Below the pieces are notes generated by a model. It was not told where the DNA came from. It did no database searches and saw only the letters and a program-made list of their open reading frames with translations. A program made the translations under genes and the position numbers. Positions 6,276-60,455 of a stretch of 64,000 nucleotides of DNA are shown here, piece by piece; the stretch's first letter is position 1, and each line of letters begins with the position of its first letter. The DNA is from Candidatus Doudnabacteria bacterium (GTDB taxonomy: Bacteria > Patescibacteriota > Doudnabacteria > UBA920): positions 129,137-193,136 of the forward strand of contig JAEUSF010000001.1 of NCBI GenBank assembly GCA_016788665.1, in the 5' to 3' direction.

Positions 6276-6806
6276 ATGAGTAAATTTTTAAATCCAAGTG
6301 AAATAGTGGCGCAAATGGGGCTTATGCAGGGACAGACCGTGGCAGATTTAGGTTGCGGCAATGGTTTTTATGTTTTGCCAGTTGCCCAACTGGTGGGTGG
6401 AGGTGGTATTGTATGGGCAATAGACGTAATGGAAGCTAAGCTTGCCGCAACGGTTTCTATTTCTAACCAGTTTGGGTATAGGAACGTTAGAATTTTACAG
6501 GCCGATTTATCTAAACCAATTTTGGACATCCCCGCAGGGAGTTGTGACGCTGTTGTAATAGGTAACATTTTGCACGAAATAAGTGACAAAGAACAGTTAT
6601 TAAAAAACGCTTACAGGTTCTTAAAAAGTTCAGGCAAGTTGTTGGTTGTAGAGTGGAAAAAAGCTCTCGCCCCTATGGGCCCTTCCATAGATAAAAAAAT
6701 AGACCAGACACAAGCAGAGACATGGTTAATGAATTTAGGACTTAGAAAATTGAAAGAACTTAATGCAGACAATTACCATTATGGGTTATTGTTCGAAAAA
6801 ATATAA
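6276..6806 (+). CDS. class I SAM-dependent methyltransferase
   Basis: motif I VADLGCGNGFY, acidic post-I motif. Confidence 0.65.
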   Translation: MSKFLNPSEIVAQMGLMQGQTVADLGCGNGFYVLPVAQLVGGGGIVWAIDVMEAKLAATVSISNQFGYRNVRILQADLSKPILDIPAGSCDAVVIGNILHEISDKEQLLKNAYRFLKSSGKLLVVEWKKALAPMGPSIDKKIDQTQAETWLMNLGLRKLKELNADNYHYGLLFEKI

Positions 6807-11705: not shown

Positions 11706-13168
<1,463 letters not shown>

Positions 13169-13451: not shown

Positions 13452-13847
13452 CTATTTTTCGCGGTCAATAATAATGCCGAACTGTTCGTCCAGGTTACAA
13501 ATCCGTTCCCGCAAGTCCGGGCCCGGCTTTGCACGCTCAGCTTCTAGCTTCTCAAAGTATCTTTCGCAGCCGGGTGGCATAAAGCACAGTATAAGCTGAC
13601 CTGGGCTTTCCCCGACGTTTCTGAAGTGGTGCTGGATTCCTGTGGGTCCTGTCAGCCTATCTCCCGCGGACAGCTTGATGGGCAGTTTGTTGCCCATGTA
13701 AAATTCAAAAACTCCTTGGAGGACTATAAACTCCTCGGTTTCTCGGGTGTGAGTGTGCGGCGGCGGGCCTTCGCCCGCCGGAACGTTGAGTTCCACCATG
13801 GAAAACTCAGGCCTCACCAAAATAGTTCTGGCGTACGGCTGTGGCAT
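13452..13847 (-). CDS. cupin-domain protein
   Basis: cupin motifs PHTHTRETEEFIVLQG and IQHHFRNVG; start moved to MPQPYART with SD aaggagg (ORF track 13922); GC-rich relative to neighbours. Confidence 0.6.
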   Translation of the reverse strand: MPQPYARTILVRPEFSMVELNVPAGEGPPPHTHTRETEEFIVLQGVFEFYMGNKLPIKLSAGDRLTGPTGIQHHFRNVGESPGQLILCFMPPGCERYFEKLEAERAKPGPDLRERICNLDEQFGIIIDREK

Positions 13848-13936
13848 AGTAGCCTCCTTGTTTCTGAACAAAGTTCTCCAAAGTTTAACATAAAAGCGGC
13901 AAGTGTTCAACGACGACTGCATTTAAAAAATATATT

Positions 13937-13980: not shown

Positions 13981-14250
13981 TTATAGCCCAAACCTTTGTT
14001 TGGCAATTTCTTGGTTAATGCCGTTTATAAGGTTAGTAAACCCTAAATCTTTCAGGATTTGAATAGCCAAGCCGGAGCGGCTACCGGTTTTACAGTAAAT
14101 AATAATAGGAGAATCTTTTTCTATGTCTTTAAGTTCGGGAGCACCTTTCATTAGGCTTTCGGAGGGCACATTTATTGCACCGGGTACGTGTGAAAAAGAA
14201 AATTCTAAAGGTTCCCTTACGTCGACTAGTATGTAATTAGTTTCAGGCAT
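13981..14250 (-). CDS. single-domain rhodanese-like sulfurtransferase
   Basis: ILVDVREPLEF...YCKTGSRSG active-site Cys loop; 89 aa; 3-nt gap to fur-family gene. Confidence 0.7.
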   Translation of the reverse strand: MPETNYILVDVREPLEFSFSHVPGAINVPSESLMKGAPELKDIEKDSPIIIYCKTGSRSGLAIQILKDLGFTNLINGINQEIAKQRFGL

Positions 14251-14252
14251 AA

Positions 14253-14672
14253 TTATTTGTCGCAGGTATTACATAGGCCAAAAAATTCTAAGGAATGTTC
14301 TTTAATTTTAGAAAAGCCCGGAATTTTGGTTTTGGGCAGGCGTACTTCACAGTTTTCCAGGTCGGCAATTTTGCCGCAACTGGTACAGACCAAATGGTGG
14401 TGATGCGAGTGAGGTATCTCGTAGTGTATTTCTTTGTCTGAAATTCTTAGTTTTTTTATTATGCCCATTTCTGCTAGGCTTTCTACGTTTCTGTATAAAG
14501 TGACCAGGTCTATTTTTCCAATGCTCTTATAAAGTTTGGCAATTTCTTTTACGGCAAGAGGTTTTTTGTTGTGTTTAAAAATGTCTAAAAGCCCTAGTCT
14601 GCCAGGGGTAACTTTAAGCCCGTTGTCTTTTAGTGTGGCCGATATCTCATTTGTGTGTTGGCTGCATTTCAT
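14253..14672 (-). CDS. Fur-family metalloregulator (probably Zur)
   Basis: winged-helix N-terminus, HHHHLVCTSCGKI and C-terminal CxxC; neighbouring ZIP transporter operon carries the same palindrome. Confidence 0.8.
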   Translation of the reverse strand: MKCSQHTNEISATLKDNGLKVTPGRLGLLDIFKHNKKPLAVKEIAKLYKSIGKIDLVTLYRNVESLAEMGIIKKLRISDKEIHYEIPHSHHHHLVCTSCGKIADLENCEVRLPKTKIPGFSKIKEHSLEFFGLCNTCDK

Positions 14673-14700
14673 GGGTTAAATATAGCAAAAGTTTGGCCTC

Positions 14701-14730
14701 TTGACAAATGCAAGTCATTTGCATTAAGAT
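14701..14730. promoter_or_regulatory. divergent promoter with embedded palindrome AATGCAA-gtcat-TTGCATT (candidate Zur/Fur box)
   Basis: TTGACA at 14701 directly abutting the 7-5-7 inverted repeat at 14707-14725; lies in the 64-bp gap between fur-family gene and ORF 14737. Confidence 0.6.
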
Positions 14731-14736
14731 ATAGCA

Positions 14737-15366
14737 ATGCTGAAACGGATGTTGGTGTTTTGGTTTTTTGTTCCATGTTTCGCTCAGGGGCAGGAGACGC
14801 GGTTTGGCGGGCTTTTAGAAAAACCAGATCAGGCTCATAACCATTCCTCTGTAAATGGGTTTTCTTCCCGCGGCGATATTTCAAAGGAGGAGGGTGCCAG
14901 TTTTCGTGTACCGTTGAATTATAAGTTTGCTTACGGATGGGAATCAGTCAGGCTTTTGCCGGTCGAACGAGTTAAGAAGGCTCTGGAGATGGGGCTTCGC
15001 GAACGCCAGCTTTTGTTTCCGGATGAGAGGCTGGAATTTATAAAAGAAGCTTGGGAGGAAGTAAAGTTACGGCATGCAACTCGGCATCTCTTCGCCATGG
15101 ATAAGTTTGGCCGAATTTGCCTTATCCAAGACGTGGGCCGTTGTAGCATAATTGCTTGGGTGTCTCCAAAAGGCACTTGGCATAAGCTAGGAGTTTTTTT
15201 TGCCAAGAAGGTCGCCTTGCCTGCTGCCCAGGCTTTGGGGCTTTCGTTGGTTTATACGCCTGTGCTTCGCGCTGTAGGGGGCGGTGTAGCGGTGGGAGTA
15301 GGAGGAACGGGCGGTTCGGTGGGCTGTCACCAAGATGGCGCAGCAATTCATTGCGGCGCACACTAA
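14737..15366 (+). CDS. hypothetical protein (signal-peptide-like N-terminus, His/Cys-rich C-terminus); GC-rich, uncertain
   Basis: 209-aa ORF starting right after box 1; no SD; markedly higher GC, overlapping antisense ORFs make frame choice tentative. Confidence 0.3.
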   Translation: MLKRMLVFWFFVPCFAQGQETRFGGLLEKPDQAHNHSSVNGFSSRGDISKEEGASFRVPLNYKFAYGWESVRLLPVERVKKALEMGLRERQLLFPDERLEFIKEAWEEVKLRHATRHLFAMDKFGRICLIQDVGRCSIIAWVSPKGTWHKLGVFFAKKVALPAAQALGLSLVYTPVLRAVGGGVAVGVGGTGGSVGCHQDGAAIHCGAH

Positions 15367-15410
15367 GCTTTGTGGCGGGCTTTGGGAAGACCAGAGACCG
15401 CCGCCATTTT

Positions 15411-15446
15411 TAACAAATGCAACATATTTGCATTAAAAATATTTAT
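15411..15446 (+). promoter_or_regulatory. second copy of promoter/palindrome AATGCAA-catat-TTGCATT
   Basis: 26 of 32 positions identical to box 1 region; sits immediately upstream of ATG 15447. Confidence 0.6.
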
Positions 15447-16046
15447 ATGCCGGAAGTCGCTTTAAATTTTAGCTGGATTAAGAAGTTGTTTGTAGACGGT
15501 AAAAAGCCGCAATTTTCAATTTTTGATTTGCCCGACAGCTCAAAAATTTTAGATGTCTCTTGTGGTGAAGGAAATTTGCTTAAGTGCCTTCAGAATAACA
15601 ACCCGAGTTTAAGACTATATGGACTGGATATTTCTAAAAAAGTCATAGAAACTGCGAAAGCAAGGTTTCCGAAAATAAATTTTTGTGAAGGTCAGGCAGA
15701 AGCTTTGCCTTTTTCAGAAAAAAGTTTTAAAGCCGTGGTAACCAGTATGGCTTTGCACCACTATAAAAATCCCAAAGAAGTGTTTAAGGAAATTGCCAGG
15801 GTTTTAGAGCCTGAAGGCTTGTGTTATTTGGTAGACTACGTGCCCAAAAATAAATGGTCACAGAGACTAAATAACCTATTTGGTTGTCACGAGCCTTATC
15901 ATTTTGAAAAGTACTACACCAGTCAGGAAATAGAGGATATTGCAAGTTCGGAAGGTTTAAAATTTATTGCAAAAAATGAAATAAATTTTTTCTATGCACA
16001 AACCAGAATGGTTTTTATTAAAATTAATTATTTTAGGAATCTATGA
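15447..16046 (+). CDS. class I SAM-dependent methyltransferase (Methyltransf_11-like)
   Basis: LDVSCGEGNLL motif I, YGLDIS, ALHHY; start set at second Met after the operator (ORF track 15417). Confidence 0.65.
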   Translation: MPEVALNFSWIKKLFVDGKKPQFSIFDLPDSSKILDVSCGEGNLLKCLQNNNPSLRLYGLDISKKVIETAKARFPKINFCEGQAEALPFSEKSFKAVVTSMALHHYKNPKEVFKEIARVLEPEGLCYLVDYVPKNKWSQRLNNLFGCHEPYHFEKYYTSQEIEDIASSEGLKFIAKNEINFFYAQTRMVFIKINYFRNL

Positions 16047-17320
16047 AAAATAAATTAGTAGTCTTTCTAATATTTTTTTTATGTTTGGTTTTTACCCGAA
16101 TAATTGCCGCTGCGCCATCGCAGGTTGAAATGCCAGGCACGGTGGGAGAAGCGTTAATGGAGCCGGAGTTGGTGAGTCACGATAAGTTAAGGCAGGTGCA
16201 TATTACAAAAACTGAGGCCAAAAATTTGGTAATTGACGAAGCTTATATAAAGAATTTAATTACTTTAACATTTAATCAAATGTTGTCAGAAGGCCTTTTG
16301 AAGGGTGAAAAAGGCGATCCGGGGGTTAGTATAAATAGTATTGACCCAGATGTTGTTGGTTTTCAGACTGCTTATATACCCGGAGCTTTTGTTGGTCCGG
16401 ACGTTGGTACGGTTTTTGCCGCGACCAATTTGTCTTCCGATGTTCTGATTTCTAATAGTGCCAATTTTAATAGTCTTGAGCTAAGTGGAGATTTGAGTGT
16501 GGAGGGAGGGGTAAATTTTTCGGGCGAGGCAAGTATGGCAACGACTTCGGTTACCGCTTTGTCCGTATTTACAATAAGCAGTCAGGCGGGGGCCTATTTA
16601 AGCGAAGGTGGTGACTGGGTTAATGCTTCAAGCCGTGAGCTTAAAGAGAATTTGGCAACTACTTCACCAAACGAAATTTTAGAAAAAATCGCCAATTTGC
16701 CTATATACTCCTGGAATTATAAAAACCAAAGCTCTTTAATTACTCATACAGGTCCAATGGCCGAAGATTTTTACGAAATCTTTAAACTGGGCGGTGAAAA
16801 TGCCAGTACTTCTATTTCCACCATAGATACTTCAGGTGTGGCCTTGCTGGGAATTCAGGCATTAAATGAAAAAATAAAAAACTTAACAGACTTAGGCTGG
16901 ATTTTAGAAGTGCTTAAAAAGTTGGGTGTAGAAATTTCTGAAAGTTTGGTTAAAGCAAAAAATTTAGTGGCAGATAAAATTTCTACAAAAAATTTAGAAG
17001 TGGGTTCGGGTGAATTGCCTACGGGGATTACAATTTACGACTCTGTTACACGGGAGCCGGTGTGTATTTTTTCGGAAAATGTCAGTTTAAAATTACACCT
17101 AGGTAAGTGCGGGGACACCGATGTGCAAAAGGAGGAACGGGAAAATTTGGGCACGATAAATGCAGAAGGGTCTCGAGTGGAGATGCATGAATTAACTGAA
17201 AGCAGTGTTGATAATAATCTTTCTGGTGAAGAATTAAACGAAAACATTGGAGTAGAAACGGCTTCAAATGAGCCTGAAAATGGCTCGCTGGAGACCAATG
17301 TTGAAAAAAATATACAATAA
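16043..17320 (+). CDS. secreted tail-fibre-like protein with collagen-like triplets and C-terminal peptidase S74 intramolecular-chaperone domain
   Basis: signal peptide; GEKGDPG; SSRELKENL...LPIYSWNYK...HTGPMAEDFYEIF...ALLGIQALNEKIKNL matches the endosialidase chaperone/auto-cleavage domain. Confidence 0.65.
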   Translation: MKNKLVVFLIFFLCLVFTRIIAAAPSQVEMPGTVGEALMEPELVSHDKLRQVHITKTEAKNLVIDEAYIKNLITLTFNQMLSEGLLKGEKGDPGVSINSIDPDVVGFQTAYIPGAFVGPDVGTVFAATNLSSDVLISNSANFNSLELSGDLSVEGGVNFSGEASMATTSVTALSVFTISSQAGAYLSEGGDWVNASSRELKENLATTSPNEILEKIANLPIYSWNYKNQSSLITHTGPMAEDFYEIFKLGGENASTSISTIDTSGVALLGIQALNEKIKNLTDLGWILEVLKKLGVEISESLVKAKNLVADKISTKNLEVGSGELPTGITIYDSVTREPVCIFSENVSLKLHLGKCGDTDVQKEERENLGTINAEGSRVEMHELTESSVDNNLSGEELNENIGVETASNEPENGSLETNVEKNIQ

Positions 17321-17334
17321 GGTAAACTGAATAT

Positions 17335-18078
17335 ATGAATATAATTTGGATTTATGTTATGTTAGCGGTTCTGGTAGTTAGTCTTATTTCTTTTGTCGGC
17401 GTATTTACGTTGGCTATAAAAGAAGACAGGTTGAAGAAATGGCTTTTGTCGTTGGTTAGTTTTTCCGCTGGTGCTTTGTTGGGCGATGTGTTCATTCATA
17501 TTTTGCCGGAAATGGCCGAGGGTGGGTGGCCGGAGTACGCGGGTTATTATTTGTTGTTTGGGATTTTAACTTTTTTTATTTTAGAAAAATTTGTTTTTTG
17601 GCACCACTCACACAGCGAACATGACGAGTCGGTCCATTCTTATACATATTTAAGTTTGGTGAGTGACGGTTTGCATAACTTAATAGACGGTATGATAATA
17701 GCCGGTGCTTTTTTGGTTAGTCCTGCTTTGGGTTTGGCTACGACGCTAGCTGTGGTATTTCACGAGATACCACAGGAGATAGGTAACTTCGCGGTTTTGG
17801 TGCACGGAGGTTTTTCTAGAACAAAGGCTTTGTTTTATAATTTTGTTTCCGCATTAACAGCTTTTTTAGGTGCTATTTTAGTTTTGGTTTTTATGAGTGG
17901 CTTTGAAGGCGCGCCTTCTTTTTTGCTTTCTTTTTCCGCCGCAAGCTTTATTTACATAGCTATGTCGGACTTAATACCTCAGCTGCATAAAGAACAAAAC
18001 AAAAAAACCGCTGCTTGGCATTTGCTCTGGTTTGTGTTAGGTGTGTTTACTATGTGGTGCCTTATTTTGCTTGAATAA
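17335..18078 (+). CDS. ZIP-family divalent metal (zinc) transporter
   Basis: 8 TM, HHSHSEHDE loop, HEIPQEIGNFAVL signature. Confidence 0.8.
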   Translation: MNIIWIYVMLAVLVVSLISFVGVFTLAIKEDRLKKWLLSLVSFSAGALLGDVFIHILPEMAEGGWPEYAGYYLLFGILTFFILEKFVFWHHSHSEHDESVHSYTYLSLVSDGLHNLIDGMIIAGAFLVSPALGLATTLAVVFHEIPQEIGNFAVLVHGGFSRTKALFYNFVSALTAFLGAILVLVFMSGFEGAPSFLLSFSAASFIYIAMSDLIPQLHKEQNKKTAAWHLLWFVLGVFTMWCLILLE

Positions 18079-18079
18079 A

Positions 18080-19234
18080 ATGAATAAGCATAAAAAAATT
18101 TTATTGAGCTTGGTTGCCGTTTTTATTGCCTTGCTTGCCGCAGGGCTTTTTTATGTAAAGCTTCTGCCTGTAAAAAATTTTTCTTTTCATACTGATGCGG
18201 TAGATGCAGGGCTTGGAACTTTTTCGGAAATTAGCAAGGCTAAAATACTAAAAGTTATTAGTGAGGAAGCGGAAATAACCAGCCGGTATTCGCAACTTAA
18301 TGGAGTGTATGAGGCACGTATTTTAAATGGACCGGAAGCTAATTTAGTAGTAACAGCGGAGTTAAGCGAGCAGGTTACGGAACTGAATTCGCAAAAGTTG
18401 CAAGAAGGCGATGAAATTGTCATTGGAAAAATTAAAGATCCAGAGAGTTCTTCATACATTATAATAGACCGCTACAGACTTGATGCTTTAGCTTGGCTAG
18501 TTGGAATTTTTGTTTTTTTAGGGTTGCTGTTTGGACGCCGCAAGGGGGTGCTTTCTTTAATGGGGCTCGCGTTTAGTATATTAATATTGCTAAAGTTTGT
18601 TGCTCCGAGTATTTTAGAAGGTAAAGATCCGGTTCTGGTTACAATTTTAGGAGCCGGTATGATTTCTGTGGTTTCTATTTTTTTGTCGCATGGTTTTAAT
18701 AACCGGACTTTGGTTGCTGTAGTTTCCACTGTATTGGTTTTGTTATTAACATTAGTGGGGGCCTGGTCTTTTATATTGGCAGGAAAGTTTTTGGGCCTGG
18801 GTTCCAACGAAGCTCTGTATTTGGAATTGGGTTTACTGAAAGGCTTTGACTTGCGCGGAATATTTTTGGCTGGGGTGGTAATAAGTACTTTGGGAGTTTT
18901 GGACGACGTTACGACTACTCAGGCAGCGACAGTGGAAGAGATTAAGCTAGTAAAACCGGAGGCAGGGTTTCGGGAACTTTTTAGCCGAGCTAATTCTGTG
19001 GGTAAAGAACATATTTCTTCGCTTATAAATACTTTGGTGCTTGCTTATGCTGGAGCCTCTTTTCCATTTTTCCTGCTGCTAACTTTTTCCTCTACTCAGC
19101 CTTTATGGGCCGTGCTTAATAGCGAAGCTTTGGCAGAAGAAATTTTGAGAACTTTGGTTGGAAGCGCTGCTTTAATTTTGGCCGTACCGCTTACAACAGC
19201 CCTCGCTGCGTGGTATTTTAGGCAAAAACCCTAG
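18080..19234 (+). CDS. YibE/F-like multi-pass membrane protein
   Basis: N-terminal TM, soluble domain, then about 6 TM; start at MNKHKK overlapping zip stop. Confidence 0.45.
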   Translation: MNKHKKILLSLVAVFIALLAAGLFYVKLLPVKNFSFHTDAVDAGLGTFSEISKAKILKVISEEAEITSRYSQLNGVYEARILNGPEANLVVTAELSEQVTELNSQKLQEGDEIVIGKIKDPESSSYIIIDRYRLDALAWLVGIFVFLGLLFGRRKGVLSLMGLAFSILILLKFVAPSILEGKDPVLVTILGAGMISVVSIFLSHGFNNRTLVAVVSTVLVLLLTLVGAWSFILAGKFLGLGSNEALYLELGLLKGFDLRGIFLAGVVISTLGVLDDVTTTQAATVEEIKLVKPEAGFRELFSRANSVGKEHISSLINTLVLAYAGASFPFFLLLTFSSTQPLWAVLNSEALAEEILRTLVGSAALILAVPLTTALAAWYFRQKP

Positions 19235-19433: not shown

Positions 19434-19784
19434 ATGGCTAAAAAATTATTTGTAGGCAACTTGCCTTGGTCAACTACTAACGATGACCTTCAAGCAATGT
19501 TCAGCCAACACGGTGCGGTTTCTTCCGCTACCATAATTACCGACAAAGCAACTGGACGTTCCAGGGGTTTTGGTTTCGTTGAAATGGAAAATGACAACGA
19601 AGCTGATGCTGCTATTGCCGCCGTTAACGGCAGCGATATGAGCGGTAGAAAAGTTATGGTTAACGAAGCAAGACCAATGACCGAAAGACCTCCTCGAAGC
19701 GGTGGTTTCGGTGGTGGACGCGGCGGCGGTTACAACCGCGGCGGTGGCCACGGTGGTGACAGAGGCGGCAACGACCGCTGGTAA
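19434..19784 (+). CDS. RRM-type glycine-rich RNA-binding protein
   Basis: RNP-2 LFVGNL and RNP-1 RGFGFVEM, C-terminal GGRGGGY/RGG tail; SD aaaggtgag. Confidence 0.8.
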   Translation: MAKKLFVGNLPWSTTNDDLQAMFSQHGAVSSATIITDKATGRSRGFGFVEMENDNEADAAIAAVNGSDMSGRKVMVNEARPMTERPPRSGGFGGGRGGGYNRGGGHGGDRGGNDRW

Positions 19785-19803
19785 TTAAGTTTTACCGAAT
19801 TTA

Positions 19804-19836
19804 CCCCGTCTCCTTTTTTAGGGAGACGGGGTTTTG
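19804..19836 (+). terminator. rho-independent terminator
   Basis: 10-bp stem ccccgtctcc/ggagacgggg then TTTT. Confidence 0.65.
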
Positions 19837-19872
19837 ATTTATAAACAAAGATTGCTATAATTATTTATATCT

Positions 19873-20301
19873 ATGCACAGAAGACACAAATACGATATAT
19901 TAGTTATTTTTAGTACGCTTGCTTTGGCAGTCAGCGTATACTTGTCTGTGGCCAAAGCTATGAGCATAAGCGTGCCGTGTGATATAACCGGCGGGTGCGA
20001 GTCCGTGCTTTCTAGTAAGTATTCAGAAATTATGGGTGTGCCTTTGTCTACTGTGGGTATAGTTTATTTTTCACTAATTTTGGTTACGGCTTTGCTGGCT
20101 AACCATTACAGAAAAGCACAAAAAGCCCTGACTTGGTTTTTAGCTGCCGGATCTTTGGGTTCTTTGGTATTTTTATTTTTACAATTTTTTGTTATACGAG
20201 CGGTTTGCCAGTATTGCCTTTTAACTGACTTAACCACAATTCTTATGTTTATACTGGATATAAACATAGAACATAAAGCGCACAGCCTAAATGTGCTATA
20301 A
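19873..20301 (+). CDS. VKOR-family (vitamin K epoxide reductase-like) thiol-disulfide oxidoreductase
   Basis: loop Cys pair PCDITGGC, SKYSEIMGVPLSTVG motif, active-site CQYC in last TM. Confidence 0.55.
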   Translation: MHRRHKYDILVIFSTLALAVSVYLSVAKAMSISVPCDITGGCESVLSSKYSEIMGVPLSTVGIVYFSLILVTALLANHYRKAQKALTWFLAAGSLGSLVFLFLQFFVIRAVCQYCLLTDLTTILMFILDINIEHKAHSLNVL

Positions 20302-20339
20302 TATCTTTAGAGCATATAAATAAAATAAAAAATAAAATT

Positions 20340-20522
20340 ATGCCAAAAAATAATCAACCTTCAGAAGAATATAACCCACGTTGGTTTGTGTGGACCGTTG
20401 TCTTTCTGGTGGTAACCGGTGTTTCTTTGGTGGCCTTTATAACCTTGAGCGACTCAGGGTCCGATGGCTACCAAGAAGTAACAATCGGCCGGTCTGTCCG
20501 GTCATCGGGTATGAGCAGATAA
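20340..20522 (+). CDS. small hypothetical membrane protein
   Basis: 60 aa, one TM; weak. Confidence 0.25.
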   Translation: MPKNNQPSEEYNPRWFVWTVVFLVVTGVSLVAFITLSDSGSDGYQEVTIGRSVRSSGMSR

Positions 20523-20529
20523 ATAAAAA

Positions 20530-20561
20530 TTCCGCATAGCAATAGAGCTTGCGGATTTTTT
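20530..20561 (+). terminator. rho-independent terminator
   Basis: tccgca/tgcgga stem plus 6 T. Confidence 0.5.
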
Positions 20562-20672
20562 ATTTTTGTGCTATAATAGTTATAGAAGATTGCGAGCGGA
20601 GCCAAAATTAGTTCCGATCTGCAAACTACAAAATATCCTAAAAAAGGGTATAGAAACAAAAACAAAATTTAA

Positions 20673-21983
20673 ATGGAATTCGTATTAAGTTTTTTTGGTT
20701 TGCCTCATGATTTCGGCCAAAAAGCGGACAACGCTTTGGTCCGGACTTTTTTGCATATAAAGGATCATTTTATTCCTCATCATAGGAATAATTACCATCC
20801 TCATGTTTTAGGCCACAGGACTTTGGCTTTGTTTTCTTCTTTGCTTATAGCGGTAAAAATATTTTCCATTGGGGCGGTAACGTTCGGGACGGTAGAGCCG
20901 GTTTTTTCTTCGGCAATTACTGAAAGCAATATTATTTCTTTGACCAACGCCTCAAGGGCGAGTTACAATTTGTCCTCTTTAAGTCTAAACAGCAAGCTGT
21001 CCCAAGCGGCTCAAGCAAAAGCAGAAGACATGCTGCTTAAAGGTTACTTTTCTCATAACACTCCAGACGGAAAAACTCCCTGGGACTTTGTGGTTGCCGC
21101 CAATTATAATTATTTAACAGCAGGAGAGAATTTGGCGGTGAATTTTACCGAAGCCGAAGATGTAGAAGATGCCTGGATGAATAGTCCGGGGCACAAAGCA
21201 AATATTTTAAATAAAAATTTTGAAGAAATAGGTATTGGTATAGCACAGGGAGTGTACCAGGGTAAGAACGCGGTATTCGTTGTGCAAATGTTTGGTACGG
21301 AGTCTGCTCAACAGGTGGCATTAAGCGAAGCTCCTACAGCAGTTGCGCCTCCGGCTTTGGCAAATGTTGAGCCTGTAAAAGTGAGCGAGCCTGTCAAAGA
21401 AGTGGTAAAAGAAATTTCTCCGGTACAGGTGCAAGCAAATAAAGAAAGTGTAAAAGTTGTCGAAACGACCGACGTGGCTCAGGCAAAAGAAATGCAAATA
21501 TCTCAAACCAACTTTTTGCAGGAAGGACAAATTTTAAAACTCACAGCGGAAATTTTAGGTGACCCGGTAAAAGTGTTGGCTAAGTTTGGTAAGGCGGCGG
21601 TGCTACTGAGCGCAAGGTCAGACGGTTCATGGGTTGGTGAAATAAAACTTTCTAACCTTACTGGAGCTGGGTCAGGGCTTGTGCTGGAAGCTTATGATAT
21701 GAGGGGTAACAAAATAAACAGCCAGGTGGCAGGTTTCGCGGGCAGTACTCAAAGCAATTTTAACGTAGTGCCAAGTGAAAAGTCGGACGAAAAAAAAGTT
21801 AGTATGTTCGGAACAGCATTTTCTCCCGAAAGGTTTGAGCAAAAGTTTTATTTGATCTCCGTAGCTATACTATTAAGTTGTCTGCTCCTTGCTATAGCTA
21901 TAAAGAGGCATGTCCAGCATTTGTCCCTTATAGCCAATACTAGTTTTGTTGTAGTGCTTAGTATAGGTTTGTGGTTAAAGTAA
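20673..21983 (+). CDS. CAP/SCP (YkwD-like) domain protein with N- and C-terminal TM segments
   Basis: GENLAVNF...AWMNSPGHKANIL CAP motifs. Confidence 0.65.
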   Translation: MEFVLSFFGLPHDFGQKADNALVRTFLHIKDHFIPHHRNNYHPHVLGHRTLALFSSLLIAVKIFSIGAVTFGTVEPVFSSAITESNIISLTNASRASYNLSSLSLNSKLSQAAQAKAEDMLLKGYFSHNTPDGKTPWDFVVAANYNYLTAGENLAVNFTEAEDVEDAWMNSPGHKANILNKNFEEIGIGIAQGVYQGKNAVFVVQMFGTESAQQVALSEAPTAVAPPALANVEPVKVSEPVKEVVKEISPVQVQANKESVKVVETTDVAQAKEMQISQTNFLQEGQILKLTAEILGDPVKVLAKFGKAAVLLSARSDGSWVGEIKLSNLTGAGSGLVLEAYDMRGNKINSQVAGFAGSTQSNFNVVPSEKSDEKKVSMFGTAFSPERFEQKFYLISVAILLSCLLLAIAIKRHVQHLSLIANTSFVVVLSIGLWLK

Positions 21984-21997
21984 ATTTTTTAAACTTT

Positions 21998-22038
21998 GCT
22001 CCTTCTTTGGAATATGTTTCCAAAGAAGGAGCTTTTTT
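21998..22038 (+). terminator. rho-independent terminator
   Basis: gctccttctttgg/ccaaagaaggagc 13-bp stem plus T-run. Confidence 0.65.
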
Positions 22039-22056
22039 GTTTTGGACACGGTTTGA

Positions 22057-23220
<1,164 letters not shown>

Positions 23221-51798: not shown

Positions 51799-52102
51799 GT
51801 TCTCAGAAATAATTTTCACTATTTATATACTGCTCACAGATCACAGCCTTTCCATTATTACTTAGGGAATCAGGCAACTAGATCGTCAGGGGCAGTAGCT
51901 AAATGGTGATAATTCTAAAATCAGTTACGGAAAGAATTCTCATCTGTACTTTAAAAATCGAATACTAAATTATCGTATTCAACCAAACGATAATTTATGG
52001 GTAAATCTATTTAATTTTTTGTAAGTTAAATAGAATTGTAAGAAAACGAAAGAACATTGTAGTCCAGAAAATTTTTTTTAAAGAAAATTTTGACGGGACA
52101 TA

Positions 52103-55958
<3,856 letters not shown>

Positions 55959-56112
55959 TAATAACTTCTTTTTAAGAAGTAGTCCTGTCAAAATTTTCTT
56001 TCGAAAAAGTAAACACAGATCTTAGATAGCACAGATACACCGATTATATTTAGGTTGCATATTGGATGGTTATGCTTTATGTATAACCCATCCACCTCGC
56101 CCTTTTTAAAAA

Positions 56113-56232
56113 GGGCGAGGTGGGTGACATTTCCGGTGTGGTACGACCCGATCCCATCCCGAACTCGGAAGTCAAACACGCCAGGGCCAATGATACTACC
56201 GCGCATGCGGCAGGGAAAGTAGGTAGTTGCCC
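56113..56232 (+). rRNA. rrf: 5S ribosomal RNA
   Basis: CCGATCCCATCCCGAACTCGGAAGTCAAAC loop C/helix III consensus; termini pair; processing hairpin 56094-56125. Confidence 0.7.
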
Positions 56233-56341
56233 TTTATATGTTAAACCGCTCTTTAAACAGAGCGGTTTTTCTATTGGAAAAATTCATAGTTGGTTCATAT
56301 AAGTCTGCAAGTCTTATGTAGTTAGATAACAAGGAGGACTT

Positions 56342-58610: not shown

Positions 58611-60455
58611 ATGTGTGGAATCGTCGGATATGTAGGAAAAAAAGAAGCTTTGCCTGTTTTGCTGCAGGGGCTTAGGGATTTAGAATACAGGGGCTATGAC
58701 AGCGCTGGTATAGCGGTTTTAAACCAAGGTAAAATTTTTAGGGTGAGGGAAGTTGGGAAAGTTGATAACTTAGTTAATAAGCTTAAAGGAAAAACTTTAG
58801 AAGGTTCAGTAGGGATAGCGCATACTAGGTGGGCGACTCATGGAGGTGTAACAGAAAAAAATGCCCATCCTCATTTTGGCAGCAGTTCTTTAGGTGAACC
58901 TGAGGTAGAGGGTAAGTTGGCTTTGGTGCACAATGGAATTATTGAAAATTATCGGGAAATAAAAAAACAGCTTAAGGATCAAAATTTTTCTTCCGAAACT
59001 GATTCTGAAGTTTTAGCTAAGCTAATTTATGAAAACTATGAAGGCGATTTGGTGAAGGCTGTAAAAAAGTCTCTACCCAGAGTCAGGGGTACATATGGTG
59101 TGGCAGTTATGCATCAGGATAACCCGAATTTAATCGTCGCTGCCCGCTTGGGTAGTCCTTTGGTTGTTGGTATGGGCCAGAATGAATATTATCTAGCTAG
59201 CGATGTAACCCCCATGCTGCCTTATACAAAAAGGGTAAGTTATTTAGACGACGGTGAAGTGGCGGAAATTTCTACGGCTGGAGTTAAGATTTCCAATTTA
59301 AAAGATGAAGTGGTTAAGAAGGACATTACCCGCATAGAGTGGGACAAGGAACAGGCACAAAAAAACGGCTTTCCTTCCTTTATGCTTAAAGAAATTTTTG
59401 ACCAACCAATAGTTTTTGAGGACGCAATCCGCGGACGTTTTAACATGCAAGAAGGTACGGCAATTTTAGGTGGGCTGAATATGACGGAAGAGGAAAAGAG
59501 GGATGTAAAGCGCGTGGTCATAGTAGCGGAAGGTACGGCCAGGCACGCTGGGCTTATTGCTAAGTATGCGTTTGAAAGGTTGGCGAATTTGCCTTGTGAA
59601 GTGGATTCTTCTTCAGAATTTCGTTACCGGGATCCGGTGGTGAATGAGTCTACTTTGGTTTTTGCAATTTCGCAGTCTGGTGAAACTGTAGATACTCTTT
59701 TAGCTATACGTGAGGCTAAGAGAAAAGGCGCGAAGGTGCGTGGGGTGGTTAATGTGGTGGGTTCGACAATTGCTCGTGAAACCGGAGCTGGAACTTATAT
59801 CCATGCAGGACCTGAACTCTCCGTGGCTTCTACTAAGGCATTTACCAATATGGTTACTGTTTTGCTTTTGTACGCTTTGGAGTTTGGCAGAATAAAGCAA
59901 ACCAGCCCTGCTACTGGACAAAGGCTCTTGCAGGCGCTTTTAGAAATACCGGAAAAAATGCATAGCATTTTAAAACAGAGCGAGCAAATAAAAGAAATTG
60001 CAAAAGTTTATGCAAAGTATCAAAGTATAATTTTTATTGGCCGCGGCGTAAATTTCCCGGTTGCATTGGAAGGGGCTTTGAAGCTCAAAGAGATTTCTTA
60101 TATTCATGCGGAAGGTATGTCTGGAGGGGAATTGAAGCATGGTCCTTTAGCTTTGGTTTCTAAAGATTTGCCTGTAATTGCAGTTTTAACTCAGGATCAG
60201 TTATACGAAAAAATGAAAAGCAGCGTAGCGGAAGTAAAAGCGCGCGGAGCGAGAACTTTAATTATTGCGAATGAGGGCGACGAAGAGGTAAGGGATCTGG
60301 CAGATGAAATAATTTATGTACCCAAAACAATGGAATTGCTTGAACCGCTTTTAAATACAATTCCTTTGCAGTTATTTGCTTACCACATGGCCGTGATTTT
60401 AGGAAAAGATGTAGACAGGCCGAGGAATTTGGCTAAGTCGGTAACGGTTGAATAG
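58611..60455 (+). CDS. glmS: glutamine--fructose-6-phosphate aminotransferase
   Basis: MCGIVGY N-terminal nucleophile, two SIS domains, C-terminal KSVTVE. Confidence 0.9.
   Translation: MCGIVGYVGKKEALPVLLQGLRDLEYRGYDSAGIAVLNQGKIFRVREVGKVDNLVNKLKGKTLEGSVGIAHTRWATHGGVTEKNAHPHFGSSSLGEPEVEGKLALVHNGIIENYREIKKQLKDQNFSSETDSEVLAKLIYENYEGDLVKAVKKSLPRVRGTYGVAVMHQDNPNLIVAARLGSPLVVGMGQNEYYLASDVTPMLPYTKRVSYLDDGEVAEISTAGVKISNLKDEVVKKDITRIEWDKEQAQKNGFPSFMLKEIFDQPIVFEDAIRGRFNMQEGTAILGGLNMTEEEKRDVKRVVIVAEGTARHAGLIAKYAFERLANLPCEVDSSSEFRYRDPVVNESTLVFAISQSGETVDTLLAIREAKRKGAKVRGVVNVVGSTIARETGAGTYIHAGPELSVASTKAFTNMVTVLLLYALEFGRIKQTSPATGQRLLQALLEIPEKMHSILKQSEQIKEIAKVYAKYQSIIFIGRGVNFPVALEGALKLKEISYIHAEGMSGGELKHGPLALVSKDLPVIAVLTQDQLYEKMKSSVAEVKARGARTLIIANEGDEEVRDLADEIIYVPKTMELLEPLLNTIPLQLFAYHMAVILGKDVDRPRNLAKSVTVE

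Follow-up and report, generated by a model that had tools for sequence, protein, structure and literature searches.

The 64-kb stretch of DNA analyzed here, from a Candidatus Doudnabacteria bacterium (hereafter the window), carries two copies of a palindrome next to the gene of a Fur-family metalloregulator and to genes for metal uptake. The regulator, a candidate Zur of 139 amino acids (aa), is encoded on the reverse strand (14253-14672; Pfam FUR, PF01475, E = 1.9e-24). On the forward strand lies first the open reading frame ORF209 (14737-15366), which has no Pfam match, encodes a small exported protein and would form a single-gene unit driven by the first palindrome (copy 1). The second palindrome (copy 2) is followed by four genes, for a class I S-adenosylmethionine-dependent methyltransferase (199 aa, 15447-16046; Methyltransf_11, E = 1e-23), a secreted Peptidase_S74 protein (425 aa, 16043-17320; PF13884, E = 1.5e-9), a ZIP-family metal importer with a histidine-rich loop, HHSHSEHDESVH (247 aa, 17335-18078; Zip, PF02535, E = 1.4e-40), and a YibE/F-family membrane protein (18080-19234; YibE_F, E = 1.6e-66). 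These four are tightly packed, with an overlap, then a gap of 14 nucleotides (nt), then a gap of 1 nt. The Pfam matches confirmed the identities (Fur family, methyltransferase, S74, ZIP and YibE/F) given in an earlier reading of this DNA, the original prediction.

Copy 1, AATGCAAGTCATTTGCATT, is a 19-bp palindrome at 14707-14725 and copy 2, AATGCAACATATTTGCATT, lies at 15416-15434; neither is assigned a strand. Both match AATGCAA-N5-TTGCATT exactly. This pattern occurred twice in the window and in none of 100 dinucleotide-preserving shuffles. Tolerance of up to two mismatches added a single window site, at 60354 within a 614-aa reading frame, and all matches to the 19-mer consensus with four mismatches sit inside or overlap coding sequence. 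Weak sites at 6762, 47743 and 60354, all inside coding sequence, were rejected as chance matches, as was a third putative operator at the ZIP start (17334-17352, four mismatches), which overlaps the start codon. No further credible operator was found in the window by this mismatch-tolerant scan. The original prediction had described two near-identical 32-bp segments. Similar modules are indeed present; however, the second starts at 15411 instead of 15413, and an identity of 26/32 requires a single gap, placed in the A-rich −10 region; without it, the alignment (14701 versus 15410) gives 24/32.

The palindrome, at first described as a 7-5-7 inverted repeat, can equally well be divided within the same 19 bp as 7-1-7, with the cores TGCAAGT-C-ATTTGCA in copy 1 and TGCAACA-T-ATTTGCA in copy 2. 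A Fur-family 7-1-7 box is the preferable reading, and the consensus of this operator family, aaTGCAAAT-n-ATTTGCAtt, corresponds to it. Both copies display inverted heptamers, a 1-base gap and overlap with a promoter, as is typical of Fur-family operators. A close parallel is the Fur/feoAB1 operator of Magnetospirillum gryphiswaldense (PDB 4RB1), with a TGCAAAT-C-ATTTGCA core: the 7-1-7 core of copy 1, TGCAAGTCATTTGCA, and the M. gryphiswaldense operator, TTGCAAATCATTTGCAA, are identical in 14 of 15 positions. In the M. gryphiswaldense Fur co-crystal the operator TTAATTGCAAATCATTTGCAATTGC is bound by one dimer, in which Arg57 contacts G and Tyr56 contacts T bases (PMC4506495). The base-reading pair is kept as Tyr60 and Arg61, invariant in the window regulator family, where the recognition helix reads T-L-Y-R-N. 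Very probably, both palindromes are bound by the Fur-family repressor whose gene lies next to them.

The −35 hexamers TTGACA and TTAACA directly abut the two palindromes, and a −10 follows each, as had been noted originally. The predicted ORF209 promoter (14701-14730, forward strand; scan score 10/12) combines a −35 TTGACA (14701-14706) with a −10 TAAGAT (14725-14730) across an 18-nt spacer that the operator fills; the ATG (14737) lies 6 nt past the −10 and 11 nt past the palindrome. On the reverse strand, the regulator gene would be read from a promoter at 14679-14707 with −35 TTGTCA (14707 to 14702), a 17-nt spacer and −10 TATATT (14684 to 14679), which also scored 10/12, with a TG extension, and stands 6 nt ahead of its ATG (14672). 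Copy 1 is immediately upstream of this leftward −35, with a 1-nt overlap. The two −35 hexamers consequently overlap back to back; the operator is internal to the rightward promoter and lies directly ahead of the leftward one. For the four-gene operon, direct reading of the DNA suggests a promoter at 15410-15439 (forward strand) with −35 TTAACA (15410-15415), again an 18-nt operator-filled spacer, and −10 TAAAAA (15434-15439), in a geometry that parallels copy 1 and the orthologues; the methyltransferase ATG (15447) is 7 nt past this −10 and 12 nt past the palindrome. A predicted intrinsic terminator of the ORF209 unit (15372-15411, forward strand), with a hairpin spanning 15372-15404 and then a run of five T (15407-15411), folds at −22.8 kcal/mol (z = −4.2), and none of 200 shuffles folded as well. 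Because it separates ORF209 from copy 2, a second promoter-operator module is needed downstream.

The distances in these modules are kept among relatives (designated here by L numbers and described below). In the cTTGA(C/T)A-box-AAGATAT-N4-ATG module, box and ATG are 11 nt apart in the window, L213 and L087; the spacing is also 11 nt in L092, in box-AAGATAT-N4-ATG, but there without a TTGACA-like −35 hexamer. On the other side, the end of the box is separated from the fur ATG by 34 nt in six lineages (the window, L213, L085, L001, L002 and L086) and by 35 nt in L003. Since such fixed box-to-ATG distances leave no space for a ribosome-binding site, the window mRNAs, those of both rightward units and of fur, are probably leaderless. 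The fixed promoter-box-ATG distances also account for the similarity of the two window copies extending past the palindrome.

The layout suggests a simple model of regulation. Metal-loaded repressor sitting on the spacer-filling operators would block RNA polymerase at two rightward units, ORF209 (copy 1) and the methyltransferase-S74-ZIP-YibE/F operon (copy 2), because the operator fills the spacer between −35 and −10. Since copy 1 abuts the leftward −35 of the repressor's own gene, autoregulation would probably follow. When metal is scarce, the repressor would lose its regulatory ion and leave the DNA, and the importer and its partners would be transcribed, probably as leaderless messengers.

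We collected related loci as contigs carrying Fur homologues of the window regulator, and four more (L212-L215) by a search with the S74 protein. The box adjoins Fur orthologues in 11 related lineages, at identities of 93% (L001), 87% (L002), 66% (L003/L004), 65% (L085), 57% (L087/L088), 56% (L086) and 54% (L089-L091), and it also adjoins fur in L212-L215. A box equivalent to copy 1, identical or near-identical to it, stands beside fur in L001, L002, L003, L085, L086, L087 and L213; in L086 it is a perfect palindrome, AATGCAAATCATTTGCATT, 34-35 nt upstream of fur. The genes that follow the box in the 11 lineages code for ZIP or znuABC importers, YibE/F, the S74 protein, the methyltransferase and an ORF209-like protein. 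Several layouts are found. In L002 and L003/L004, fur is directly divergent from ZIP-YibE/F with a single box between them. In L085, a paralogue of the S74 protein (ORF288, without S74 domain) comes first behind the box, then ZIP and YibE/F. L087/L088 carry three boxes, before the ORF209-like gene, methyltransferase-S74 and znuA-znuC-znuB, with YibE/F further downstream, and L089-L091 have one box between znuABC and fur-YibE/F. Finally, in all four of L212-L215, whose S74 proteins are 35-53% identical to that of the window, the S74 gene opens an S74-znuA-znuC-znuB operon with boxes upstream, beside fur and with yibE/F adjacent or within a few kb; the S74 gene is usually the first of an S74-znuABC operon. 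In the importer slot, the window, L001-L003 and L085 have ZIP, and L087, L089 and L212-L215 have znuABC. A divergent 296-aa gene next to fur in L086 was discarded as a further member of the S74 family, since it shares only the N-terminal G-X-Y region.

Operators equivalent to copy 2 are found upstream of methyltransferase-S74 in L087 (9089-9107) and upstream of S74 in L213 (6919-6937), L212, L214 and L215. The original prediction had called the window module duplicated. We discarded the idea that a local duplication produced the two modules recently: operators occupy orthologous positions in L213 and L087, and by this comparison the two- or three-operator layout is an ancestral architecture.

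These data also bear on whether the palindrome is bound by the Fur protein at all. It could instead be a generic promoter element, the site of another regulator or the remnant of a mobile repeat that came along with the inserted genes; the two modules share flanking −35 and −10 elements as well as the palindrome, and gene content between fur and ZIP differs among the window, L001 and L002. Against this stand the Fur-family gene as constant neighbour at 54-93% identity (and in 23 of the 120 metagenome loci described below), the orthologous two-module arrangement in L213 and L087, and the lack of any other regulator gene common to these loci. Besides, the pattern has just two exact copies in the window, both by metal-uptake genes. 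We hence consider a palindrome without Fur partner very improbable. The assignment of the palindrome to the adjacent Fur protein has, on the contrary, gained strong support from conservation down to 54% identity, the 7-1-7 geometry and the 14/15 core match. Control of the ZIP and S74 operon by it is likewise supported: in six other lineages, L085 counted, the same box precedes a zinc importer (ZIP or znuABC) together with YibE/F and a member of the S74 family.

The regulator itself matches Pfam FUR at 86.5 bits (cut-off 23.1) over profile positions 2-120 of 121, and belongs to this family. Residues H34, E85, H90-H93, C96, C99, H126, C134 and C137 are invariant in 26 relatives. They include two CxxC pairs (C96/C99 and C134/C137), which make up a structural Cys4 zinc site, and the alignment points to two further candidate metal sites, H34/E85/H91/H93/D104 and H90/H92/H126. 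Among 22 solved homologues the best was Bacillus subtilis PerR (2fe3), and the best NCBIfam model was that of a clostridial PerR. A PerR-like peroxide sensor, in which metal-catalyzed histidine oxidation frees the operators and links oxidative stress to metal import, has therefore to be considered; B. subtilis PerR makes such a link via zosA. D104 is nearly invariant in the regulator family, and an aspartate at this position is a hallmark of PerR. In addition, msrA and msrB lie near fur in L086. The recognition helix T-L-Y-R-N, however, carries a Tyr-Arg pair, as Fur and Zur do, where PerR has Tyr-Asn; the PerR motif is SVATVYN (PMC12748984). The TGCAAAT-type box also differs from TTATAAT-N-ATTATAA, and no catalase, peroxiredoxin, rubrerythrin or Dps gene was seen behind the box in any examined locus. 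Such a sensor is therefore highly improbable here.

A more serious question is which metal is sensed. In an otherwise identical architecture, the regulator could respond to manganese or iron, as Mur- or Fur-like proteins do, with ZIP and the cluster A-I ABC systems importing Mn2+ or Fe2+. Several observations favour this alternative, or at least weigh against zinc. The box is essentially that of alphaproteobacterial Fur/Mur in iron and manganese regulons, a comparison that rests, as to the Mur box, on the M. gryphiswaldense operator. The likely sensing ligands H34, E85, H91, H93 and D104 resemble those of Fur, PerR and Mur and comprise no cysteine; of the Asp/Cys/His/His sensing site of solved Zur proteins, only the histidine pair H91 and H93 is present. 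Streptomyces coelicolor, Mycobacterium tuberculosis and Escherichia coli Zur carry a sensing cysteine where this regulator has none, the position being held by E85 and that of the hinge aspartate by K73. The best solved homologue, as said, is PerR. With the NCBIfam models, PerR (76 bits) and Fur (71 bits) gave the top scores and Zur the lowest (PRK11639, 23.3 bits for a cut-off of 167), all far below cut-offs, so this typing decides no metal. ZIP proteins can carry Mn, Fe and Cd. Among the importers, zinc-versus-manganese margins in NCBIfam are small, the Deinococcus MntC model scoring close to AdcA/AztC, and the L087 binding protein has a glutamate as third ligand, as in manganese or iron binders. 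A separate objection concerns repression: on the zur side the operator is upstream of the −35, and such a position does not guarantee it (PMC6103462).

Other evidence points to zinc. Of six binding proteins from Candidate Phyla Radiation (CPR) bacteria (L087, L089 and L212-L215), five show the AdcA/YcdH ligand set His-His-His-Glu, carried on the motifs EPH..., DPHFW, (S/T)H(N/D)AF and NP(I/V)E(G/S)L. AdcA and AztC were the best NCBIfam models for these proteins, and the one searched against solved structures (L089) had YcdH (E = 4e-49) and AdcA as best homologues. We extended the analysis by a metagenome scan with the pattern AATGCAARTNAYTTGCATT, which returned at least 121 sites in at least 120 loci (L092-L211; GC 0.20 to 0.68). 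Among the 110 reading frames flanking the listed sites, 23 belonged to the ZnuA family, 12 to FUR, 4 to ArsP_2, 3 to ZIP, 3 to TonB-dependent receptors and 3 to ABC ATPases; over the whole fetched stretches of the 120 listed loci, a ZnuA homologue was present in 34 and a Fur homologue in 23. The zinc-type third-ligand histidine was found in 20 of the 22 full-length box-flanking binding proteins of these loci, several of which carry histidine-rich loops. In contrast with a manganese or iron regulon, MntH, Feo, ferritin and siderophore genes were all missing from the top 25 Pfam families flanking the box in the listed loci. The box there also precedes ArsP_2 permeases (4), CbiM (2) and the cobalamin-independent methionine synthase MetE (2), possible further regulon members in other phyla; MetE is a zinc enzyme.

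The predicted Zur box of Desulfovibrio is of the same type. A 17-bp box, ATGCAACnnnGTTGCAT, was predicted upstream of znuABC-zur in that genus (Rodionov et al. 2004, PMC545781). Its outer hexamers ATGCAA...TTGCAT and 17-bp spacing are those of the window operators, the left half ATGCAAC being exact in copy 2, and in both cases the site lies beside a divergent Fur-family gene and, for the family, a ZnuA-type importer. The inner part differs, AAT-n-ATT here versus C-nnn-G there, as does the host phylum; the Desulfovibrio site is itself a computational prediction and has no S74, YibE/F or ZIP partner genes. The M. gryphiswaldense operator nearly matches the core of copy 1, but Fur and Fur-alpha/Mur respond to Fe2+ or Mn2+ and regulate feo, sit and mntH, unlike the zinc-type importers found here, and the window regulator is only distantly related to M. 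gryphiswaldense Fur (E = 8.6e-8 versus 4raz).

Actinobacterial Zur (S. coelicolor 3mwm, M. tuberculosis 2o03) has a TGAAAAT-N-ATTTTCA box, a Cys4 site, a sensing cysteine and a hinge aspartate. The window family shares with it the structural Cys4, the HHHH-(L/V)-(V/I)-C-x-x-C motif, a 7-1-7 box and the regulation of znuABC, and differs by E85 in place of the sensing cysteine, lysine in place of the hinge aspartate, and C instead of A at the third position of the half-site. A profile scan of named genomes with the Fur alignment, in which the listed relatives are at most 41% identical, served to sort box types. Among the matches listed, TGCAAAT-type boxes lie near Fur relatives of Saccharibacteria, Peribacteria, other Patescibacteria, Verrucomicrobia and Methylomirabilales, and TGAAAAT-N-ATTTTCA stands instead beside those of Omnitrophota, Dehalococcoidia, Planctomycetales, Atribacterota and WOR-3 (L026, L032, L043, L059, L077). 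The Omnitrophota, Dehalococcoidia and Planctomycetales relatives thereby carry exactly the box of actinobacterial Zur. Both box types, one base apart per half-site, are found within the same protein subfamily.

The absence of the Zur sensing ligands weakens membership in the characterized Zur clades and not the functional claim, as this feature varies among Zur clades; genomic context decides the metal more than the regulator protein does. Zinc is favoured by importer swapping, with high-affinity zinc importers behind the box both in the window (ZIP) and in the 11 related lineages (ZIP or znuABC), the AdcA-type ligands, the metagenome census and the Desulfovibrio Zur box. We consequently judge it likely that the palindromes are operators of the dimeric Fur-family repressor encoded at 14253-14672, and most likely a zinc-sensing Zur; zinc is, with a similar and fairly good confidence, the best-supported identity of the regulated metal. 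Manganese or iron appears unlikely. The Zur assignment made in the original prediction, though unproven, is therefore upheld by the importer families, the AdcA-type ligands, the metagenome histidines and the Desulfovibrio box, and is opposed by the Fur/PerR-like, cysteine-free sensing site. Taken together, the finding is real and its earlier interpretation largely right: the Fur-family repressor-operator pair is of a known geometric class, and the repressor most probably acts as Zur in a CPR bacterium.

We then considered the genes behind the operators. ORF209 has a signal-peptide-like start and ends with the motif GCHQDGAAIHC. A gene at the same position in L213, ORF188, is 38% identical (E = 4e-35) and carries GCHMDGAQIHC, and a weaker similarity was seen with L087 ORF180. 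Genes of this type therefore occupy 14737-15366 in the window, 6267-6833 in L213 and 9164-9706 in L087. With a GC of 0.48-0.55, ORF209 exceeds its neighbours (0.35-0.40). The GCH.DGA.IHC tail could plausibly bind metal, which makes the type a candidate family of exported metal-binding proteins without Pfam model. Another small gene was noticed in L087 (9775-9945), between a perfect operator and fur: its 56-aa product has a signal peptide and the motif HNCGGTCGIC, which is rich in Cys. Homologues of the methyltransferase take up the equivalent operon slot in L001 and L087.

An NCBI entry from a metagenome-assembled genome, 'tail fiber domain-containing protein [Candidatus Doudnabacteria bacterium]', is 100% identical to the S74 protein. 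In the window protein, a signal peptide and a short run of G-X-Y type (GEKGDPG) accompany an internal S74 domain (residues 196-247 of 425; 38.5 bits versus PF13884, cut-off 22) and a conserved C-terminal module with two cysteines, followed by an acidic tail. About 20 full-length family members show the same plan: signal peptide, two to five G-X-Y triplets, a conserved stalk, the internal domain, then a conserved module EVGS..P.GIT.YD....P.C.......L.....GKC and an acidic or Ser/Thr-rich tail. In the family alignment S196, K201, C341 and C356 are near-invariant, and A195, S196, K201, E202 and N203 are at least 90% conserved. As in the intramolecular chaperone domain of phage endosialidases and tail fibres, the Pfam match comes with a putatively autoproteolytic Ser...Lys dyad, S196 and K201 five residues on, and with a preceding G-X-Y stalk; the stalk is likely to form a trimer. 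Unlike the phage domain, however, it is internal, with the module and tail after it, one paralogue (L085 ORF288) lacks it, and the gene resides in a chromosomal metal-uptake operon among fur, znuABC, ZIP and yibE/F. No phage genes were seen near S74 genes in the neighbourhoods of the related loci. An AlphaFold2 model from the 20-sequence alignment was too poor to judge the fold (mean pLDDT 42.9, pTM 0.17).

The ZIP protein scored 140 bits against PF02535 (cut-off 35.1), with a weak NCBIfam ZupT match, and its metal specificity is a prediction. It is 81-87% identical to the fur-adjacent ZIP genes of L001 and L085. For YibE/F the longest reading frame begins at GTG 18041, and the likely start is ATG 18080, 1 nt past the ZIP stop. 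Alongside the regulator, a YibE/F gene is present in L001-L003, L085, L087, L089-L092 and L212-L215. In the named-genome scan, YibE/F and Fur-family genes were also located no more than 10 kb apart in Saccharibacteria, other Patescibacteria, Levyibacteriota, Kaiserbacteria and a Nocardioides genome (L006, L024, L028, L029, L033, L063, L065; among the matches listed), which hints at a general link of YibE/F to metal homeostasis. Literature searches for YibE/F with zinc, or Peptidase_S74 with zinc, yielded nothing relevant.

Joint control of a fibre-like surface protein and zinc uptake had been regarded as unexpected. The co-regulation stands, but it is conserved and not peculiar to this genome. 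It also recalls the streptococcal AdcR regulon, where adcAII, for a zinc-binding ABC lipoprotein, is co-transcribed with surface Pht (histidine-triad) proteins. AdcR, of the MarR family, recognizes the box TTAACYRGTTAA, and Pht proteins bind zinc via their histidine triads. In both systems the operon of a zinc-responsive repressor, predicted in the case of the window, joins an importer component to a large surface protein. In contrast with Pht, the S74 family alignment revealed no conserved histidine/cysteine cluster suggestive of direct zinc binding beyond the two cysteines. We infer the functions of the S74, YibE/F and ORF209 partners from association alone. Tentatively, and with rather more doubt than confidence, the three may form a CPR-specific surface apparatus induced by zinc starvation, which would capture extracellular zinc or attach the episymbiont to a metal-yielding host cell.

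Other genes surround this core. Downstream of the regulator, a rhodanese-domain gene (89 aa, 13981-14250, reverse strand; Rhodanese, E = 4.4e-17) starts 2 nt past the regulator stop codon and is probably co-transcribed with it; in L001 (10176-10457) the pair shares 11 nt, and the pairing is absent in L002 and L003. It is followed by a Cupin gene (13452-13922, reverse strand; Pfam). Beyond YibE/F (19434-23220) come genes for an RRM-domain RNA-binding protein, VKOR, a CAP-domain protein and IMPDH, in the same order in L001, L003 and L213. Between fur and the methyltransferase, L001 (7300-9700) bears other cargo, namely a GC-rich 253-aa reading frame and an asparaginase fragment, and lacks an S74 gene; the 253-aa frame is faced by a second box, GATGCAATCTAGTTGCATT, weaker than the first. 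This operator-adjacent spot appears variable among close relatives. In L212 (11501-14551) and L215 (9330-12422) the S74-znuABC operon is followed by a fusion of about 1000 aa between a DsbD-type membrane domain and a multicopper oxidase. Elsewhere in the window the rRNA genes are unlinked, 16S (11707-13166) lying 39 kb from the 23S-5S pair (52102-55964 and 56120-56235), and the 23S match spans 3863 nt for a 2925-nt model, that is with about 0.9 kb of insertions. Both features fit the CPR.

Because CPR bacteria are uncultured, their gene regulation is almost unstudied, and the searchable literature yielded no reconstructed regulon from this group. The regulatory principle described here is ordinary. 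The novelty lies in the lineage, in the apparently leaderless back-to-back promoter and in the conserved recruitment of the S74 protein, YibE/F and a small Cys/His exported protein. The locus provides a compact, testable regulator-operator pair with a bidirectional, apparently leaderless promoter, and places three families without assigned role (YibE/F, the S74 fibre-like protein and the ORF209-like Cys/His protein) in the metal-starvation response. If the surface apparatus proposed above were true, it would give YibE/F (PF07907) its first functional assignment. If zinc is confirmed, TGCAAAT-N-ATTTGCA would be a widespread Zur box, present in Patescibacteria, Verrucomicrobia, Methylomirabilales and many unassigned metagenome contigs, and its regulators would represent a Zur clade without the canonical sensing cysteine, with a bearing on how metal selectivity evolved in the Fur family.

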